This document shows positions 1,441 to 11,250 of a DNA stretch of 11,250 nucleotides, piece after piece. The notes under the pieces were generated by a model that was not told the origin of the DNA, searched no databases, and was given only the letters and a program-made list of their open reading frames with translations. The position numbers and the translations under genes are program-made. Position 1 is the first letter of the stretch. The number at the start of each line of letters is the position of its first letter. This stretch comes from a bacterium. GTDB taxonomy: Bacteria > Fidelibacterota > Marinisomatia > Marinisomatales > UBA1611. The stretch lies in NCBI GenBank assembly GCA_038127595.1, contig JAYPIC010000056.1, positions 1 through 11,250 of the forward strand. The letters run 5' to 3'.

Positions 1441-3114
1441 ATGAGATCAGATTTAGTAAAAAAAGGATTTGATAAAGCTCCGCATCGAAGTTTGCTTCGG
1501 GCTACAGGTCAAATCAAAGGTGATAGTGATTTTGAAAAACCTTTTATTGGTATTGCGAATTCATACATTGATTTAATACCAGGTCATGTTCATCTTCAAA
1601 AATTTGGCGCGACTGCAAAAGATGCTGTAAGATTAGCAGGAGGTGTTCCATTTGAGTTCAATACCATTGGTGTCGATGATGGTATAGCTATGGGGCATAT
1701 AGGCATGAGATATTCCTTAGCCAGCCGTGAACTCATAGCTGATAGTGTTGAAACTGTAGCTGAATCTCATCGTTTGGATGGTCTTATTTGTATTTCAAAC
1801 TGTGATAAGATTGTTCCTGGAATGCTTATGGCGGCTATGCGGATTAACATACCAACAATCTTTGTTTCTGGTGGTCCAATGCAAGCAGGGGTTGATAAAA
1901 GTGGTCAAAAAATAGATCTTGTATCTGTTTTCGAGGGAGTTGGTAAATATAATGCTGGTCAAATAAATGAAGATGAGCTTAAAGATCTTGAGGAAAATGG
2001 TTGTCCAACATGTGGTTCATGTTCAGGTATGTTTACAGCAAACTCAATGAATTGCCTTATGGAAGTATTGGGTTTGGCGCTCCCTGGTAATGGAACGATA
2101 CTGGCTACAGACCCCTCCAGACTTAAATTGGTTCAAAAAGCTGGTGAAATAATTATGGATTTAGTAGACAAAGATATTAAACCTAGAGATATTGTTAATA
2201 ATGATACGATTTCGAATGCTTTTGCTCTAGATATGGCGATGGGAGGTAGTACGAATACTGTACTTCATACTTTAGCTGCATCTATTGAAGGGGATCTTAC
2301 TTTCGATATGTCAATGATTAATGAAATTAGTTCTAAAACACCATATTTATGTAAAGTAAGTCCTGCAACTCCTAATGTCCACATGGAGGACGTTTTAAAT
2401 GCAGGCGGTATTTCTGCCATATTAAAAGAATTATCAAAGAAAGATGGTGTTTTAAATCTAGACAGACCTACTATAACAGGAAAAACTTTGGGCGAAACTA
2501 TCGAACCAGCAAAAAATCTTAATGAAAATATTATTCGCACTGTTGAAAATCCATTTTCTAATGAAGGCGGATTAGCTGTGTTGTATGGTAACATTGCTCC
2601 AAATGGCTCTATCGTAAAAACCGGTGCTGTAGCTGAAAATATGCTGTATCACAAAGGTCCAGCAAGAATTTATGAGTCTCAAGATGATGCTATAAAAGCT
2701 ATACATGATGGAAAGGTTCAACCTGGTGATGTTGTTGTAATTCGCTATGAAGGTCCAAAAGGAGGTCCTGGAATGCCTGAAATGCTAGCACCGACAAGCG
2801 CGATTATGGGCATGGGGCTTGGTTCTAAAGTAGCTTTAATCACTGATGGGCGTTTCTCTGGTGGGACTAGAGGCGCATGTATTGGGCATATTTCGCCCGA
2901 AGCAGCATCTGGCGGACCTATAGCTATCATAAAGGAAAAAGATGAAATTGAAATTGATATAGCAAATCGAAAAATCAATTTAAATATTGATCAAAAAACT
3001 TTTGATTTTCGTATGAAAAGTATCGAAAAATTTGAACCAAAAATTAATAAAGGGTATTTGGGCAGGTATGCTAGACTAGTCACCTCTGCAAATACAGGAG
3101 CAGTCTTAAAATAA
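1441..3114 (+). CDS. ilvD: Dihydroxy-acid dehydratase
   Basis: 557 aa with [81 protein letters not shown] and GHISPEA. PGHVH rather than PCNxH suggests the E. coli-like [4Fe-4S] group (inference). Confidence 0.98.
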
Positions 3115-3129
3115 ATAAATGAGTCCATT

Positions 3130-4854
3130 ATGAAAAAAAATAAATTAACTGGTGCTGAAATAATTTGGGAATGTCTAATAAGAGAAGGGGTAGATGTCGT
3201 GTTCGGTTACCCCGGAGGAGCGATACTGCCCACTTATGATGCATTAAGCAAGTACAAAGATAATATTCACCATGTATTAACTAGGCATGAACAAGGTGCT
3301 ACACATATGGCAGATGGCTATGCCCGCACCTCTGGTAAAGTCGGTGTTGCGATGGCCACATCAGGGCCAGGAGCAGCTAATATGGTTACTGGACTGGCTA
3401 CTGCAATGATGGACTCTGTTCCGATTGTTTGCATTACAGGGCAAGTGCCTAGGCCTGCAATTGGTAGTGATGCATTTCAAGAGATGGATATATCTGGAGC
3501 TGTAATTCCTGTAACGAAACATAGCTATCTAGTAATGGATATAAGAAATCTTGCAAAGACCATTAAAGAAGCTTTTGCGATTGCGAGGTCCGGAAGACCT
3601 GGTCCTGTATTGATTGATATTCCCAAGGACGTACAAGCAGAGGAATATGATTTCATTTACCCAGAGGAGCCTGTAAAGCTTCCAGGAAAAAACCCTCTTG
3701 ATAAAGAAATAGACAAAAAAAGTTTAGGAGATGCAGCAGACCTTATTGCTAATGCAAAGAGGCCTGTTATTTTAGCTGGTCATGGTATACTCCTTTCTGG
3801 AGCTTCGAAAGAAGTAATTGAGCTATCTGAAAAAGGTGATATACCACTTAGTTGGACATTGTTAGGTTCTGGTGCGGTTCCTGCAAGTCACGACTTAAAT
3901 ATGGGTATGATGGGTATGCACGGCGAATTTGCAGCAAACAATGCTATTCAAAAGGCGGATTTATTGATTGCCTGTGGAATGAGATTTGATGACAGAGTAA
4001 CGGGTAATACAAAAACATATTCTTTAGATTCAAAAAAAATCCATATCGAGATTGACCCATCTGAGATAAATAAAAATGTCCCAGTAGATGTTGCCTTGGT
4101 TGGAGATTTGAAATTAGTTCTAAAAAAATTAATTCCAATCCTAAAAGATCAGCAGAATACAGATTGGATTAATGAAATCGAAAAATGGAAAAAAGAATCG
4201 CAATCTAGAGATATTATAAATGCTGATACTCAAATGTTGTATGGAGCTCAGGTAATTAGTGATATATGGAAAGAGACGAATGGAGACGCTATTGTGGTTT
4301 CTGATGTTGGTCAACATCAAATGTTAGAGGCTCAATACTACAAACATGATGAGCCAAACACTCTTCTAACTTCAGGTGGGCTTGGAACGATGGGCTTTAG
4401 CTTACCCGCTGCAATAGGAGCAAGTTTTTATAACAGAAACAAAGACATTTGGGTTATTGTTGGAGATGGTAGTATCCAGATGACAATTACGGAGTTAGCT
4501 ACTGCGGTCCAGGAGAATGCAAATATTAAAATTGCTATCATAAATAATGGATATTTAGGAATGGTTAGGCAATGGCAACAGCTCTTTTATGATTCAAGAT
4601 ATAACGAAACTCCGATTAGTAGCCCAGATTACGTTAAGCTATCTGAAGCCTATGGTTTAAAAGGTATAAGAGTAATTTCTAGACCTGAGATTCCTGGCGC
4701 AATTGAAGAGGCACAAAATATAAACGGTCCAGTTTTAGTAGAATTCGTCGTTGAACAGCATGATATGGTTTATCCAATGGTCCCTGCGGGAGCAGATCTC
4801 GATGCTATGATTAGTCGTCCGGTTCATGAACAGTTCAAAGATGCAGAAATGTAA
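3130..4854 (+). CDS. ilvB: Acetolactate synthase (AHAS) large catalytic subunit
   Basis: 574 aa with FGYPGGAILP, RHEQGA (catalytic Glu), ATSGPGA, SGRPGPVLIDIPKD, GMHG, RFDDRVTG, DVGQHQM, SGGLGTMG and the ThDP motif GDGS...NNGYLGMVRQWQ. Confidence 0.97.
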   Translation: MKKNKLTGAEIIWECLIREGVDVVFGYPGGAILPTYDALSKYKDNIHHVLTRHEQGATHMADGYARTSGKVGVAMATSGPGAANMVTGLATAMMDSVPIVCITGQVPRPAIGSDAFQEMDISGAVIPVTKHSYLVMDIRNLAKTIKEAFAIARSGRPGPVLIDIPKDVQAEEYDFIYPEEPVKLPGKNPLDKEIDKKSLGDAADLIANAKRPVILAGHGILLSGASKEVIELSEKGDIPLSWTLLGSGAVPASHDLNMGMMGMHGEFAANNAIQKADLLIACGMRFDDRVTGNTKTYSLDSKKIHIEIDPSEINKNVPVDVALVGDLKLVLKKLIPILKDQQNTDWINEIEKWKKESQSRDIINADTQMLYGAQVISDIWKETNGDAIVVSDVGQHQMLEAQYYKHDEPNTLLTSGGLGTMGFSLPAAIGASFYNRNKDIWVIVGDGSIQMTITELATAVQENANIKIAIINNGYLGMVRQWQQLFYDSRYNETPISSPDYVKLSEAYGLKGIRVISRPEIPGAIEEAQNINGPVLVEFVVEQHDMVYPMVPAGADLDAMISRPVHEQFKDAEM

Positions 4855-4866
4855 TAAGGTCATATA

Positions 4867-5385
4867 ATGAAACAAACACTAATATTATTTATGCAGGATG
4901 AGCCAGGGGTTCTTAATAGAATTTCTAGTTTAGTTAGAAGAAGGAATTTCAATATCGAAAGTATTGTTGCTGGTAGAACTGAAATAAATGGAATTACTAG
5001 AATGACTTTGGTAGTTAATGAGCCTAATGAAGCAAAGCGGGTTAATATCTATAATAACCTCAAAAGATTGGTTGATGTCTATGATGTAGTCGATGCTACT
5101 AAAGAAAATTGTCATGTCAGGGAGCATGCTTTAATGAAGATTTCACTTAAGTCAGACGAGATTCATGAAATTGAAAAATTAGTTTCAGAAGGAAATTGCA
5201 AGATATTAGATCAAGACCCAAAATGCATGATACTCGAAATATCTGGCGATGAGTCCACTGTTGAAGAGAATATCAATATTTTAAGCAAGTTTGAAGTGCT
5301 AGAACTTTTACGCTCAGGTAAGATGGCTATGATATCAGGAGACCAAGAGAGAAATAAGCCAGTTCTTACAAGATCAGAGCCATAA
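4867..5385 (+). CDS. ilvN: Acetolactate synthase small regulatory subunit (ACT domain)
   Basis: 172 aa with DEPGVLNRISSLVRRRNFNIESI, TRMTLVV, RE(H)ALMKI and ELLRSGKMAM. It starts 12 nt after ilvB, with TAAGGT SD upstream. Confidence 0.93.
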   Translation: MKQTLILFMQDEPGVLNRISSLVRRRNFNIESIVAGRTEINGITRMTLVVNEPNEAKRVNIYNNLKRLVDVYDVVDATKENCHVREHALMKISLKSDEIHEIEKLVSEGNCKILDQDPKCMILEISGDESTVEENINILSKFEVLELLRSGKMAMISGDQERNKPVLTRSEP

Positions 5386-5418
5386 AAGTTAAATTTAAAA
5401 TTAAAAGAGAGATTTATA

Positions 5419-6468
5419 ATGAAAGAACTGAATATTAATGGTTATAAAGAGCAAATCATCGAGCGTTCTGATTATCCAATTGAAAAATGTAAAGAAATAT
5501 TAAATAAAAAGATTACAGCTATCCTTGGTTATGGCCCTCAAGGAAGAGGACAGAGTCTAAATATGCGAGATCAAGGTTTTAATGTTATTGTAGGTTTAAG
5601 AAGGGGGTCAAGTTGGAATAAAGCAATCAAAGATGGCTGGATAGAGGGTAAAAATCTTTTTGAAATTAATGAAGCGACAAAAAAAGGAGATATAATCCAG
5701 TTTTTGTTATCTGATGCAGGTCAAATCCAAGCCTGGCCAGAAGTCAAAGAAAATTTGAGCGAAGGTAATACACTTTATTTTTCTCATGGGTTTGGTGTTG
5801 TTTTTCATTCTGATACTAATATCATACCTCCTAATGATATAAATGTAGTTTTGGTTGCCCCCAAAGGAAGTGGGTTAACTGTGCGCAATCATTTTCTTGA
5901 GGGAAGAGGAATAAACTCATCATATGCTGTATTCCAAGATTACGATGGTGCTGCAAAAGACATAGCAATCGCTACTGCTTTTGCTATAGGCTCTGGACAT
6001 CTATTTGAAACAACCTTCGAAAAGGAAGTACATAGTGATCTTACTGGCGAAAGATGTGTTTTAATGGGTCTTATACAAGGAGCTTTCCTTGCTCAATACG
6101 AAGTTTTACGTGAAAAAGGTCACTCTCCATCTGAGGCATATAATGAAACAATAGAAGAGGCACTTGAAAGTTTGTATCCTCTAGTTTCTGAAAAGGGAAT
6201 GGACTGGATGTATAGTAATTGCTCTACTACAGCTCAAAGAGGAGCTCTTGATTGGGCGCCAAAATTTAAAAAAGTTTTAAAGCCGGTAATTAATGATTGC
6301 TATGAAAAAGTAGTAAGTGGTGAAGAAGCCAAAATTTCAATATTATCAAATTCTAAGGATGATTACAGGCTTCAATTAGATAAAGAATTAGACGAGATAA
6401 ATAATCAAGAGATGTGGCTAGCTGGAAAACAATTAAGGCCATTGAGACCTGAAAACTCAAATAAATAA
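5419..6468 (+). CDS. ilvC: Ketol-acid reductoisomerase, fungal Ilv5/Bacteroidota-like type
   Basis: 349 aa with GYGPQG, LYFSHGF, VAPKGSG, EVHSDLTGERCVLMG, GHSPSEAYNETIEE and MYSNCSTTAQRGALDW. Confidence 0.96.
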   Translation: MKELNINGYKEQIIERSDYPIEKCKEILNKKITAILGYGPQGRGQSLNMRDQGFNVIVGLRRGSSWNKAIKDGWIEGKNLFEINEATKKGDIIQFLLSDAGQIQAWPEVKENLSEGNTLYFSHGFGVVFHSDTNIIPPNDINVVLVAPKGSGLTVRNHFLEGRGINSSYAVFQDYDGAAKDIAIATAFAIGSGHLFETTFEKEVHSDLTGERCVLMGLIQGAFLAQYEVLREKGHSPSEAYNETIEEALESLYPLVSEKGMDWMYSNCSTTAQRGALDWAPKFKKVLKPVINDCYEKVVSGEEAKISILSNSKDDYRLQLDKELDEINNQEMWLAGKQLRPLRPENSNK

Positions 6469-6602: not shown

Positions 6603-6664
6603 ATTTAATATATTTAATTATTATCAGATTTTATTTTAATAAATTAAAAATATAAAGGGTGTAT

Positions 6665-7963
6665 ATGAATATTATAAGATTAATAACATTAATTGGTGTA
6701 TTTTTTTCATTTGCATTTGCTGGAGAAGCTTCAGGCGTGAGTGAAGCTTTGTTTACAGCAAATAATACATGGATGCTAGTTTCAACATTTTTAGTTTTTA
6801 TCATGCATCTCGGTTTTGCAAGCTTGGAGACCGGTCTAACTCAATCCAAAAATACTGTAAATATATTATTTAAAAACGTAAGCATAATCGCTATTGGAAT
6901 TTTGACTTATGCTTTGTGTGGTTTTAATTTAATGTATCCGGGTGATTTTAATGGTTACTTTGGTTTTGCTGGATTTGGAATTAGCAGTCCAGATGGAGCA
7001 GCAGGCTTAATCGACTATGCTGGTGGTGCATATACATATTATACAGATTTTATATTCCAGGCCATGTTTGCTGCTACAGCTGCTACCATTGTCTCTGGAG
7101 CAGTGGCTGAAAGGATAAAATTACCTTCTTTTTTGGTTTTTTCTACAATATATGTTGCCATTATATATCCGATAGCTGGCTCCTGGAAATGGGGAGGAGG
7201 GTGGCTTCACCAAATGGGTTTTTATGATTTTGCTGGTTCAACTCTAGTGCACAGTGTAGGTGGATGGGCAGCTTTAGTAGGTGCAATTATTTTAGGGCCT
7301 AGGCTAGGTAAATATGCTAAAGATGGTTCAATTAAGCCAATAAGAGGTCATAATCTTCCTCTTGCTTCAATAGGTGTCTTCCTACTTTGGTTCGGCTGGT
7401 ATGGTTTTAATGGCGGTTCAGTTTTATCAGCTGATCCAGGTGGTGTTTCCTTAGTTTTTGTGACTACCACTCTTGCAGGAGCAGCTGGAATAATAGGGGC
7501 TATGGTTGCATCATGGTCTATAAGCAAAAAGCCAGATCTATCAATGATATTGAATGGCTCTTTAGCAGGTTTAGTTGGAATCACAGCAGGTGCTGATGTT
7601 ATAAGTCCAATTAACTCTATTATTGTTGGTTTCATTGCTGGGCTCATTGTTGTGGTAGCTGTAATTCAACTGGATAAGGCTAAAATCGATGATCCTGTCG
7701 GAGCTATTTCAGTTCATTTAGTATGTGGTATTTGGGGAACTCTAGCAGTCGGTATTTTTAGTTCTAGTCACAGCATTGTTACTCAATTAATTGGTGTTTT
7801 AGCTTATGGAGTATTCTGTTTGGTCTCATCGCTAGGTTTATTCTCAGTTATCAAATCATTAATGGGATTAAGAGTATCTGAGGAAGAAGAAATTATTGGT
7901 CTTGATATTGGCGAGCATGATATGGAATCATACGCTGGATTTCAAATTTTTACAGTTGAATAA
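6665..7963 (+). CDS. amtB: Ammonium transporter (Amt family) with probable cleavable signal peptide
   Basis: FQAMFA, GAVAER, WKWGGGWL, DFAGSTLVH, GPRLGKY, LWFGWYGFNGGS, NGSLAGLVGITA, DDPVGAISVH (twin His intact) and LRVSEEEEIIGLD. ATG 6665 is slightly preferred over GTG 6659 because the purine run AAAGGG directly abuts the GTG. The N-terminus MNIIRLITLIGVFFSFAFA looks like a signal peptide. Confidence 0.96.
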   Translation: MNIIRLITLIGVFFSFAFAGEASGVSEALFTANNTWMLVSTFLVFIMHLGFASLETGLTQSKNTVNILFKNVSIIAIGILTYALCGFNLMYPGDFNGYFGFAGFGISSPDGAAGLIDYAGGAYTYYTDFIFQAMFAATAATIVSGAVAERIKLPSFLVFSTIYVAIIYPIAGSWKWGGGWLHQMGFYDFAGSTLVHSVGGWAALVGAIILGPRLGKYAKDGSIKPIRGHNLPLASIGVFLLWFGWYGFNGGSVLSADPGGVSLVFVTTTLAGAAGIIGAMVASWSISKKPDLSMILNGSLAGLVGITAGADVISPINSIIVGFIAGLIVVVAVIQLDKAKIDDPVGAISVHLVCGIWGTLAVGIFSSSHSIVTQLIGVLAYGVFCLVSSLGLFSVIKSLMGLRVSEEEEIIGLDIGEHDMESYAGFQIFTVE

Positions 7964-7974
7964 AGGAGGATTTT

Positions 7975-8319
7975 ATGAAATTAATTATAGCTATAGTACA
8001 ACCTGAAGAATTACCTGATATTAAAGAGGAATTATTAAAGAGGAAGATATACAAATTCACCGTTAGCTCTGCTAAAGGTCAGGGCAAGGAAATTCCTGTC
8101 CAGGAAGTTTACAGAGGTATCTCTCATGAGATATCTCTGCTTACAAAAATACGATTAGAGATTGCAGTTAACGATGATTACGTAGATAATGCAGTTGAGG
8201 CTATTACTGCGGTGGCTAAAAAGCCTGATAATAAAGGCAGAGGAAAAATTTTCGTATTGCCTATTGAACAATGCATACGTATCAGAACTGATGAGAAAGG
8301 ACCTGAGGCTATAGGTTAA
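7975..8319 (+). CDS. glnK: P-II family nitrogen regulator (GlnK-like, divergent)
   Basis: 114 aa with KGQG, EVYRG, LLTKIRLEIAV, GKIFV and IRIRT. Strong SD AAGGAGG at 7963-7969; 11 nt after amtB. Confidence 0.9.
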   Translation: MKLIIAIVQPEELPDIKEELLKRKIYKFTVSSAKGQGKEIPVQEVYRGISHEISLLTKIRLEIAVNDDYVDNAVEAITAVAKKPDNKGRGKIFVLPIEQCIRIRTDEKGPEAIG

Positions 8320-8439: not shown

Positions 8440-9459
8440 TTGGCAAATAAATCGAAAAAAATAAATGTAGCCATTTTTGGCTTTGGTAGAATTGGTAGAA
8501 ATATATTCAGGCTCGCTTTTAATGATCCTAGATTTAACATTGTAGCAATAAGCGAATTTGGTCCAGCTGAGGCATTGCATTACTTGCTTGCCAGGGATTC
8601 TGTTCATGGTAAGCTGAATGAGCCCATAGAGCTTGATGGAAATCAGCTTGTTATCGGAGATCAAAGAGTATCTATCCTTCCAGGTGCAAAGCCTGGAATG
8701 ATCCCATGGTCCACAATGGACGTAGACTTTGTCATTGACGCGACTGGAGCATATCTAGAAAGAAATGAGCTTGATAAGCATATTCAGGCAGGTGCGAAAA
8801 GAGTTATAGTTTCTAGGACTCCGGACGACAGAATTGATCGAATGATTATTCATGGAATTAATGAAGAATCAGCTGAAGATTCTGATAAAATTATATCTGC
8901 TACTTCCTCAACTACTCAGGCATTTGGTTTGATGTTGCGGATACTTGATGATAATTTTAATGTGAAGAAAGCTATGATGACAACAGTTCATGCTTACACC
9001 GCTGATCAACCATTAACTGATGCTATTGGTTTAGACCTTAGAAGAAGTAGGTCGGCGGTTGAAAATATCATTCCCAATACAACCGGTGCTCCAAAAATTA
9101 TTGAAAAGTTAATGCCAGAATTTGAAGGCAAACTTGATGGTATTGCTTTTAACGTTCCAGTGCCTAATGGTTCATGCGTTGATATGACCACCGAATTGGA
9201 AAAAGTACCTTCTCCTGAAGAAGTTAATGAAGTTCTTAAAGAAGCTTCAAATGGAAAGTACAAAAATTTTATAGGTTATACAGATGATCCAATAGTGTCT
9301 AGTGATGTAATTGGTCGAGAGGAAACAATGGTTTTCGACTCAAAGGCTACTATGGTTACTGCTGATAACCTTTTAAAAACCCTATGTTGGTACGACAATG
9401 GCTGGGGTTTTTCAAAACGAATTCTTGATACAATTAAAACTTACCATAAGGATGTTTAG
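8440..9459 (+). CDS. GAPDH-family paralog lacking the catalytic cysteine (probable pseudoenzyme)
   Basis: 339 aa, TTG start. Contains GFGRIGR, DSVHG, PW...VDFVIDATG, AGAKRVIVS, TTVHAYTADQ, DLRRSRSAVENIIP, PIVSSDVIG and WYDN. The active-site motif reads SATSSTTQAF instead of SNASCTTNCL. Confidence 0.9.
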   Translation: MANKSKKINVAIFGFGRIGRNIFRLAFNDPRFNIVAISEFGPAEALHYLLARDSVHGKLNEPIELDGNQLVIGDQRVSILPGAKPGMIPWSTMDVDFVIDATGAYLERNELDKHIQAGAKRVIVSRTPDDRIDRMIIHGINEESAEDSDKIISATSSTTQAFGLMLRILDDNFNVKKAMMTTVHAYTADQPLTDAIGLDLRRSRSAVENIIPNTTGAPKIIEKLMPEFEGKLDGIAFNVPVPNGSCVDMTTELEKVPSPEEVNEVLKEASNGKYKNFIGYTDDPIVSSDVIGREETMVFDSKATMVTADNLLKTLCWYDNGWGFSKRILDTIKTYHKDV

Positions 9460-9462
9460 AAG

Positions 9463-10470
9463 ATGAAAACTCGTATAGGAATTAATGGCTTTGGCCGTAT
9501 TGGTAGATCAGTTTTTAGAGTTTTAAACTCAAGAGATGATATTGAGATTGTAGCAATAAACGATATTTTTGATAAAGAAGCTCTTACTTATCTTTTAAAA
9601 TATGATACGGTAATGGGTAGATTTCCATCTGAGGTCTCATTGGATGGTGACATGTTAAAAGCAGGTCAGCAAAATGTAAAACTTATCGCTGAGAGGGTTC
9701 CATCTGAACTACCTTGGGGAGAGCTAGGTGTAGATATCGTTGTAGAATCGACTGGTATTTTTAGACAAAGAGAGCAGTTAGAGCAGCACTTAAATGCGGG
9801 TAGCAAGAAAGTTGTATTAACTGTACCTGCAAAAGATGCGATTGATTATACAGTTGTTTTAGGAGTAAACGATAGTGGCCTTAAGTCAGAACACAAAATT
9901 GTATCAAACGCAAGTTGTACGACTAATTGTTTAGCCCCAATGGCTAAGGTTTTAAATGAGAATTTTGGTATTCAGCTGGGCGTAATTAATACCATACATG
10001 CATACACAAATGATCAAAGGCTTGCAGATGTACCACACTCTGATTGGAGAAGAAGTAGAGCTGCCGCCGAAAATGTTATACCCACTACGACTGGTGCTGC
10101 TAGGGCAGTGGGTGTTGTTCTTCCCGAGCTTAATGGGAAGTTGGATGGAATTGCTATGCGCGTACCAGTACCTGATGGTTCAGTCGTTGACTTTAATGTT
10201 CAACTCAATACAGACGTTACTGTAGATCAGGTTAATGAAGCTGTGAGAGAAGCTTCTAAAAATGGATCTCTGAAAGGTATTCTAGAATATTCTACATTAC
10301 CTGTTGTTTCATCTGATATTATTGGTAATAGTCACTCTTCTATTTTTGATGCTCCATTTACCAGAGTAATTGGTGGTAATTATGTGAAGACTCTCAATTG
10401 GTATGATAATGAATGGGGGTATTCAAATAGAGTTGTTGACCTTGTTGCTCTTCTTGGAAGCATCGGTTAA
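9463..10470 (+). CDS. gap: Type I glyceraldehyde-3-phosphate dehydrogenase, intact, probably NAD-dependent
   Basis: 335 aa with GINGFGRIGR, AIND, VESTG, SNASCTTNCLAP, TIHAYTNDQ, DVPHSDWRRSRAAA, GIAMRVP and WYDNEWGYSNR. TAAGGA SD at 9447-9452 lies inside the upstream gene. Confidence 0.98.
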   Translation: MKTRIGINGFGRIGRSVFRVLNSRDDIEIVAINDIFDKEALTYLLKYDTVMGRFPSEVSLDGDMLKAGQQNVKLIAERVPSELPWGELGVDIVVESTGIFRQREQLEQHLNAGSKKVVLTVPAKDAIDYTVVLGVNDSGLKSEHKIVSNASCTTNCLAPMAKVLNENFGIQLGVINTIHAYTNDQRLADVPHSDWRRSRAAAENVIPTTTGAARAVGVVLPELNGKLDGIAMRVPVPDGSVVDFNVQLNTDVTVDQVNEAVREASKNGSLKGILEYSTLPVVSSDIIGNSHSSIFDAPFTRVIGGNYVKTLNWYDNEWGYSNRVVDLVALLGSIG

Positions 10471-10476
10471 TTCCAT

Positions 10477-11250
10477 TTGACTAAAAATAGAACTAAAATA
10501 ATTGCAACAGTAGGCCCTAGTTGCTCTGATGCTAATGTTTTAAGTTCTATGATTGAAAGCGGTGTCAATTGTTTTCGTGTAAATCTCTCCCATGGCACTC
10601 AAAATGAAAAAAAATCATATTTTGAACTGATAAATTCTGTTTCTGACGCCAGCAATAAAACTCGTCCAGCAATCTTAGCAGATCTTGCTGGTCCAAAAGT
10701 TAGAATTAGAAATATTGATAAAACATTTAAATTATCTGAAGGTCAAATAGTAACTGTTAGCAGTGCTGAAAAAGGCGACGCAATAATTCCTATATCAAAG
10801 GGTTTAGTTTTCAAAAATCATGATCCTGATGCAAAAATAATGATAAACGATGGCAAGGTATGTCTAGAAATCATTGAATTATTAAATGAGTCTTCATTTA
10901 AGTGTAAAACTATAGTACCCGGGAAAATTAAGAGTAAGAAGGGTGTAAACTTTTTAGGGGTGACCTTAAATGTTCCAAGTTTGACGTCTCAGGATGAAAA
11001 TGATTTAGCTCTAGCTCTTGAAAATGGCGCTGATTGGGTTGCCTTATCCTTTACGAGGACAGCAATTGATTTTAGTTTAGTCAAATCAAAAATAAAAGAA
11101 CATGGTTATAATACCCCCGTAATGGCAAAAATTGAAAAATGGGAAGCTGTTAAAAACCTTGATTCAATTGTACAAGCCTTTGATGGAGTTATGGTTGCTA
11201 GAGGCGATCTTGGAGTAGAGCTTCCTCTAGAGCAGGTACCTGTCATACAG
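10477..11250 (+). CDS. pyk: Pyruvate kinase, 3' truncated by the window edge
   Basis: Manual translation from TTG 10477 is open to the end: MTKNRTKIIATVGPS...FRVNLSHG...AILADLAGPKVR...INDGKV...KGVNF...DWVALSF...MAKIEK...DGVMVARGDLGVELPLEQVPVIQ. Confidence 0.96.
   Translation, partial: MTKNRTKIIATVGPSCSDANVLSSMIESGVNCFRVNLSHGTQNEKKSYFELINSVSDASNKTRPAILADLAGPKVRIRNIDKTFKLSEGQIVTVSSAEKGDAIIPISKGLVFKNHDPDAKIMINDGKVCLEIIELLNESSFKCKTIVPGKIKSKKGVNFLGVTLNVPSLTSQDENDLALALENGADWVALSFTRTAIDFSLVKSKIKEHGYNTPVMAKIEKWEAVKNLDSIVQAFDGVMVARGDLGVELPLEQVPVIQ

Follow-up and report, generated by a model that had tools for sequence, protein, structure and literature searches.

A GAPDH-fold paralog without the catalytic Cys, encoded directly upstream of a distinct bacterial GAPDH subfamily: a candidate enzyme-pseudoenzyme pair

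To our knowledge, GAPDH (glyceraldehyde-3-phosphate dehydrogenase) of bacteria is taken to be a homotetramer encoded by one gene, and half-of-the-sites behaviour is known for GAPDH tetramers. In the chloroplast A2B2 GAPDH, both subunits are catalytic. This enzyme (GapA/GapB, PDB 2PKQ) contains two paralogous subunits per tetramer, as described in the available parts of the sources (bioRxiv 10.1101/2021.11.21.469434; PMC3728087), and illustrates that the fold is able to form such tetramers (bioRxiv 10.1101/2021.11.21.469434). A pseudoenzyme of this fold is GAPDHL of the trypanosomatids, which lacks the catalytic Cys and has possibly kept the cofactor pocket, while a relative from Bodo keeps the Cys (PMC4106842, available part). 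Another GAPDH paralog with altered phosphate sites is Epd/GapB (TIGR01532), which requires Cys and His according to the available part of PMC12041015. The pair presented here is known from its genes and consists of a GAPDH-like copy A, predicted to be non-catalytic, and an intact type I GAPDH, copy B, encoded directly downstream. In the literature searched, which comprised few subscription papers and main texts without supplements, no account of such a pair was found.

The locus and its two GAPDH-like copies

The window, i.e. the whole stretch of 11,250 nucleotides analysed, stems from a Marinimicrobia genome (G000, 96% complete), in which a tblastn search returned two GAPDH-like copies only, A and B (Table 1), with B as the sole intact gap found. 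The genes pgk and pfk are present in this genome, and CP12 and pdxJ were not found in it. Both open reading frames are intact and share 41% identity; they are separated by 3 nt, and the word TAAGGA lies 10 nt ahead of the ATG of B. A previous sequence-only reading of the window had described A as full length and free of frameshifts, with a 3-nt gap to B, a Shine-Dalgarno sequence inside A, Ser157, the catalytic His, the Asn of AFNVP and DNGWGF, and all of these residues and coordinates were confirmed.

Table 1. Features of the A-B locus in the window.
Feature	Position	Strand	Remark
Copy 1 (A)	8440-9459	+	GAPDH-fold paralog, 339 aa, TTG start, predicted non-catalytic
Ser157 at the catalytic Cys149 position of A	8908-8910	+	codon TCA
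His184 at the catalytic His176 position of A	8989-8991	+	codon CAT; kept
Asn238 at the phosphate-binding Arg231 position of A	9151-9153	+	codon AAC; strongest family mark
Gly321 at the Glu314 position of A	9400-9402	+	DNEWGY changed to DNGWGF
Putative Shine-Dalgarno-like TAAGGA for B	9447-9452	+	in the last codons of A; presumed function
Copy 2 (B)	9463-10470	+	type I GAPDH, 335 aa, ATG start, intact
B-subfamily mark YDTVMG	9601-9618	+	YDS[VI]H in lone Marinisomatota GAPDHs
Catalytic Cys152 (Cys149) of B	9916-9918	+	
B-subfamily S-loop mark DQRLADVPH	10012-10038	+	served as search motif
Pyruvate kinase	10477-11250	+	gene cut by contig end; adjoins the pair in close relatives only

The in-frame TTG start of A is also present in the related loci L001-L004, and ATG starts A in most relatives. 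Several close relatives (L007, L008, L014, L016, L009-L017) have no ATG at the expected start, and this subclade seems to use TTG, CTG or ATT-like start codons often. A simple scan detected no promoter-like sites on the plus strand between or just before A and B; the combined promoter and terminator scan gave numbers near those of shuffled sequences (6 vs 8.3 and 3 vs 1.2) and nothing useful at the A-B junction. Contigs from RNA libraries (four libraries, four studies) cover A and B, and two of them span the junction (9178-9977, X4; 9082-10067, X9), although these may originate from DNA and do not imply a single transcript. Upstream of A, the window contains an amt-glnK pair (6659-8319) whose P-II protein is divergent (NCBIfam score 76 bits, cut-off 202), an ilvD-ilvB-ilvH-ilvC cluster (1441-6468), named from translations with KARI alone checked in a relative, and a divergent class II aldolase (1-1062).

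The best PDB matches of both copies are type I GAPDHs (Thermotoga 1HDG, Geobacillus 1GD1). Residues are numbered according to the E. coli/Geobacillus scheme and were positioned via motif anchors; apart from Cys149, His176, Ser148, Thr179 and Arg231, these numbers are presumably those in common use. The five exceptions are GAPDH positions named in the available part of PMC12041015. Copy A comprises the Pfam domains Gp_dh_N and Gp_dh_C and scores 335.6 bits with TIGR01534, under the cut-off of 367.2, while B scores 435.7 bits, above the cut-off, and has Cys149, His176, Arg231 and Glu314. Of the Pi site, the A copy of the window retains Ser148, Thr150, Thr208 and Gly209. At the Ps site, formed by Thr179, residue 181 and Arg231 (PMC12041015, available part), it has kept Thr179 and Asp181 and exchanged Arg231 for Asn. 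Its Rossmann motif GFGRIG is intact and residue 32 is Glu; it retains the NAD contacts Arg10 and Asn313 and probably binds NAD.

Linkage, age and active-site residues of the pair

In the best 80 of 83 confirmed A loci, B lies directly downstream of A in 79; the contig of the remaining locus, L061, ends inside A, and the 79 include L037, which shows the start of B at the contig end. The reverse search was possible independently of A with a motif specific to B, since lone gap sequences differ from it: nine lone copies from other classes carry YDS[VI]H and the S-loop LDLPH/LDFPH...RARAAA, whereas B sequences carry YDTVMG and LADVPH...RSRAAAEN. This motif retrieved at least 123 metagenome stretches, 80 of them with flanks, 78 after the removal of two duplicates and 58 with at least 200 nt upstream. 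Among the matches listed, 57 of these 58 informative loci have the end of a GAPDH paralog immediately upstream of B, the exception being L116, a frameshift-ridden contig. The B motif also occurs in 18 of 201 Acidobacteriota genomes, and the paralog is found upstream in 17/17 with the centre genome left out; two of the 17 genomes, G354 and G226, are unpublished and are included in the trees and column counts. Copy B, which the sequence-only reading had treated as a generic intact gap, belongs instead to a distinct GAPDH subfamily, whose members are hardly ever found apart from A. The spacing is tight as well: among 153 pairs, 91 overlap by 4 nt and 36 by 1 nt, and 152 are at most 30 nt apart or overlapping. 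The few large negative spacings are probably mis-called starts.

The flanks of the pair vary. Among 32 flanking proteins scanned, those downstream include pyk, pfk, pgk, fba, glucokinase, PEP carboxylase and many unrelated ones, and the pyruvate kinase neighbour is outside the conserved A-B unit. The 64 genomes of the window's order contain 2 or 4 gap-like matches in 48 cases, none in 16 and 1 or 3 in no case. As a separate observation, all 13 small genomes of family f3 of this order (0.8-1.1 Mb, 92-99% complete) are without a type I GAPDH match to this query. In family f22, the pair precedes the GH57 gene that in f23, f24 and f26 follows the lone gap, and thus fills the slot of the lone gene. 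The pair is absent from the four genomes checked of the Marinisomatota families f20 and f25, which have two matches, so match counts alone overstate its spread. Three genomes of these families (G007, G014, G001) have a second, different Cys-less paralog (L252, L253 and L254, respectively), in which Gly occupies the Cys position, Arg231 and Glu314 are retained and Gly209 is exchanged, with no gap within 1.5 kb; a lone intact gap lies elsewhere in these genomes. Two further genomes, G067 (L257, L262) and G083 (L258, L266), each contain two different A-B pairs, which suggests that the unit moves or duplicates together, or that the bins are contaminated; the second B of G083 has an in-frame TGA. 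Viral contigs yielded no relative.

The pair was seen directly in named genomes of Marinisomatota and Acidobacteriota. Source labels of A-clade proteins add Actinomycetota/Acidimicrobiia, Planctomycetota and Gammaproteobacteria. Ten B proteins of paired metagenome loci comprise one labelled Bacteroidota, two that cluster with Gammaproteobacteria or Binatia/Verrucomicrobiae entries, and the rest without a taxon. All these labels are taken from binned genomes and could be in error. In a FastTree phylogeny of 296 rows, 86/86 A copies and 15 database representatives fall on one side of a branch (support 0.975), and 86/86 B copies with four representatives on one side of another (0.855); A plus B as one group was not recovered in this tree. 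A quick IQ-TREE analysis (54 of these rows, LG+G4) places A on one side (18/18, support 99) and separates A and B from other GAPDHs with a support of 92, B not being on one side owing to L155. One old duplication behind A and B is plausible. The trees of A and B agree (r 0.81), with 37 of the 50 well-supported splits of A recurring in the B tree, as expected for any linked genes.

In the best 80 of 83 confirmed A loci, taken from contigs of one genome per species, the Cys is absent in all 80 and replaced by Ser (76), Thr (2), Ala (1) or Val (1), and Asn231 and Gly314 occur throughout. The Ser codon, scored in 75 relatives, is TCC in 26, TCA in 23, TCT in 16 and TCG in 10; the use of all four TCN codons indicates an old change from Cys to Ser followed by synonymous drift, which accounts for the two substitutions between TCA and a Cys codon pointed out in the sequence-only reading. 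The median dN/dS is 0.060 for A and 0.052 for B (Nei-Gojobori), based on those 46 of 95 close pairs with dS of 0.05-1.5 in both genes, which are not independent of each other; between the window and L001, dN is 0.015 and dS 0.230. With a total tree length of 27.2 against 18.6, A evolves faster than B. Copy A is an old paralog under purifying selection and is not decaying. The sequence-only reading had rejected a single sequencing error as the origin of Ser157, which is borne out by Ser in 76/80 related loci through all four TCN codons. An old, maintained paralog in tight linkage to an intact gap is likewise supported: the 80 nearest relatives all lack the Cys, dN/dS is about 0.06 and near that of B, adjacency holds in both directions (79/80 from A; 57/58, among the matches listed, and 17/17 Acidobacteriota from B), and A forms one side of a branch in both trees. 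The pair is real, old and selected, and apparently undescribed in the literature searched.

The loss of the Cys noted in that reading holds for these nearest relatives but does not define the family. Across 144 A copies, position 149 is Ser in 97, Cys in 23, Ala in 15, Asn in 4, Thr in 2, Ile in 2 and Val in 1, and 62 of 120 relatives of a Thermoanaerobaculia A keep the Cys, with Asn231 in 120/120. Position 231 is Asn in 138 and Arg in 4 of the 144 A copies, compared with Arg in 144/144 B copies; Glu314 is absent from all 144 A copies and Gly209 is retained in just 8. The 23 Cys-keeping copies have lost Gly209 in 23/23 and Arg231 in 20/23, and no A copy combines Cys149, Arg231 and Gly209 (0/144), so that the phosphate sites were lost family-wide and the Cys in many branches. 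The family marks of A are the exchange of Arg231 for Asn, the loss of Glu314 and a drifting phosphate loop, not the loss of the Cys. His176 is kept in 97% of 86 A copies. In a subclade (L110, L111, L126, L145, L152, L153 and the P0185 group; labels include Gammaproteobacteria), the NAD-binding motifs and the 46-52 loop are decayed and RRSR..NIIP and NVP are kept. A Cys-to-Ser mutant of GAPDH was about 450-fold less active (PMC2662861, available part), so "dead" should be read as strongly impaired; in A, Arg231 is lost as well.

Oligomer faces and candidate functions of copy A

In the GAPDH tetramer, the O-P interface is large, the O-R interface medium and the O-Q interface small, and the S-loop touches the cofactor across R (PMC5385343, available part). 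Averaging 0.59 over 144 pairs, the conservation of A is 0.59 in the Cys loop and 0.49 in the Pi loop, and the best-kept stretches are 194-205 (0.89), 229-241 (0.79) and 276-283 (0.86). These stretches presumably form the P-axis face of the tetramer, most residue ranges being allotted to the P, Q and R faces provisionally. Two regions, 43-53 and 182-193, drift in A (0.58 and 0.61) and are fixed in B (0.88 and 0.91), which fits contacts of like with like across R; with the presumed faces, the overall pattern fits pairing of A with B across P. Going by its title, a 2003 study by Roitel cited in PMC5385343 reportedly connects the cooperativity of NAD with the P interface, so that a role of A in scaffolding and allostery is plausible. 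The A-B covariation signal, based on 144 pairs (effectively about 77), seemed enriched in the P face, with 10 of the top 100 against 1.65, but under controls it was at background, with 16/200 against 11.3 expected from the margins and 14 after nearest-neighbour swaps. The conserved oligomer faces fit an A4 homotetramer equally well. The idea that the S-loop of A lends B the use of NADP in trans was set aside because Pro188 is present in 35/144 A copies and the pattern favours B-B contacts across R; Pro188 is absent from all 80 scored copies near that of the window. Residue 188 touches the cofactor across the R axis (PMC3728087, available part).

As the two genes keep together across several phyla of bacteria, A likely codes for a non-catalytic partner subunit: it is a conserved homolog without the catalytic residues, under purifying selection and linked to an active partner. 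We consider an enzyme-pseudoenzyme heteromer, an A2B2 tetramer with two dead subunits, the probable explanation. Translational coupling would provide A and B in matched amounts, and A would co-assemble with active B through the large P-axis interface, leaving B-B and A-A contacts across R. All oxidation of G3P would be carried out by B, with A as scaffold and allosteric partner, and most A copies, including that of the window, would still bind NAD. The most speculative step is that the half-of-the-sites behaviour of GAPDH tetramers would have become fixed in the genome. Against an A2B2 tetramer, B has every catalytic residue and, as far as its sequence tells, no obvious lesion that would block a B4 tetramer, and the window's A, with its TTG start and a weak ribosome site, could be made in smaller amounts than B. 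The far-reaching version, an obligate A2B2 GAPDH in at least six bacterial phyla, whose active subunit is inadequate alone and whose dead P-axis partner makes half-of-the-sites behaviour genome-encoded, is put forward tentatively and may well be wrong.

If A were an assembly factor, or else a poison subunit lowering GAPDH activity, and bound B transiently, the same linkage, selection and interface conservation would be expected, and the possibly weaker start of the window's A would suit this role. However, tight coupling fixes the A:B ratio and leaves little scope for regulation by amount, no promoter-like plus-strand site was detected between or just before the genes in the simple scan, and A starts with ATG in most relatives, which makes transient binding improbable. 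Only a little more credible is an NAD(H)-binding oligomer of A by itself, serving as redox sensor or moonlighting binder and simply co-expressed with B. The Rossmann motif of A is highly conserved (0.90), Asp/Glu32 and Asn313 are mostly retained, and in trypanosome GAPDHL, a dead GAPDH has a structural role of its own (PMC4106842, available part). Yet the NAD contacts have decayed in whole subclades: Arg10 is replaced by Glu, Gln, His or Asn in 18/124 A copies and is Gln in all 119 scored relatives of a gammaproteobacterial A, and Asn313 is replaced in 13/144. The sensor proposed in the sequence-only reading is thereby weakened as a family-wide function, and it leaves unexplained why B's own subfamily is almost never alone and why the genes overlap by 1-4 nt.

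Copy A could also be an enzyme with changed chemistry or substrate, like erythrose-4-phosphate dehydrogenase (E4PDH), with the Cys-keeping copies active. His176, Ser148, Thr150 and Thr179 are kept, the Cys is present in 23/144, Asn231 and Gly314 are fixed replacements and not free drift, and some clades of the GAPDH superfamily function without the Cys (PMC12041015, available part). With Cys and His in 23/144 copies, some may indeed be enzymes. As a general explanation, this is rather unlikely, since the nucleophile position holds S, C, A, N, T, I or V, the Cys loop is conserved at the protein average, no pathway genes accompany the pair, A is far under the cut-offs of E4PDH models and pdxJ was not found in G000. 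A decaying duplicate or sequencing artefact, to which the faster evolution of A overall (tree length 27.2 vs 18.6) might point, is refuted by the dN/dS of 0.02-0.19 in 46 pairs and by the 80 relatives with intact frames and the same substitutions, and the RNA-library contigs covering A speak against it; we give it practically no credence.

If the A2B2 assembly were true, a conserved two-gene GAPDH in which one partner is dead would constitute a new architecture among Marinimicrobia, Acidobacteriota, Acidimicrobiia and other abundant uncultured groups, and the partners, ranging from Cys-keeping to NAD-site-less, would be a living record of half an enzyme becoming a scaffold. The cooperativity of subunits could be studied with the pair as a natural tool, and a graded series would be at hand for the origin of pseudoenzyme subunits. 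There is also a consequence for annotation, as the databases label A "glyceraldehyde-3-phosphate dehydrogenase".

Comparison with known GAPDH systems

Both copies share the two Pfam domains and similar length of type I GAPDHs (TIGR01534), but only B meets the cut-off of this family, whereas A is under it and without Cys149, Arg231 and Glu314. Like Epd/GapB, A is a GAPDH paralog with altered phosphate sites. However, it scores 262.7 against the TIGR01532 cut-off of 530.55, the window's A is without the Cys that Epd requires, and in place of the Epd marks, the Cys nucleophile and the exchange of Thr179 for Met, it has Ser and Thr.

The chloroplast A2B2 enzyme is regulated via the CP12-like C-terminal extension of GapB, while A (339 aa) and B (335 aa) are without an extension and CP12 was not found in G000. 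In addition, one partner is predicted to be dead here. The plant GapB subunits are located at O and Q, whereas the conservation pattern of the present pair suggests like subunits across R. GAPDHL, in turn, is eukaryotic and flagellar, shares about 25% identity with active GAPDHs and shows poor conservation, and the available part of the source describes no linked partner gene (PMC4106842). Copy A, by comparison, is 41% identical to B, has a similar dN/dS and is coupled to its partner at the gene level.
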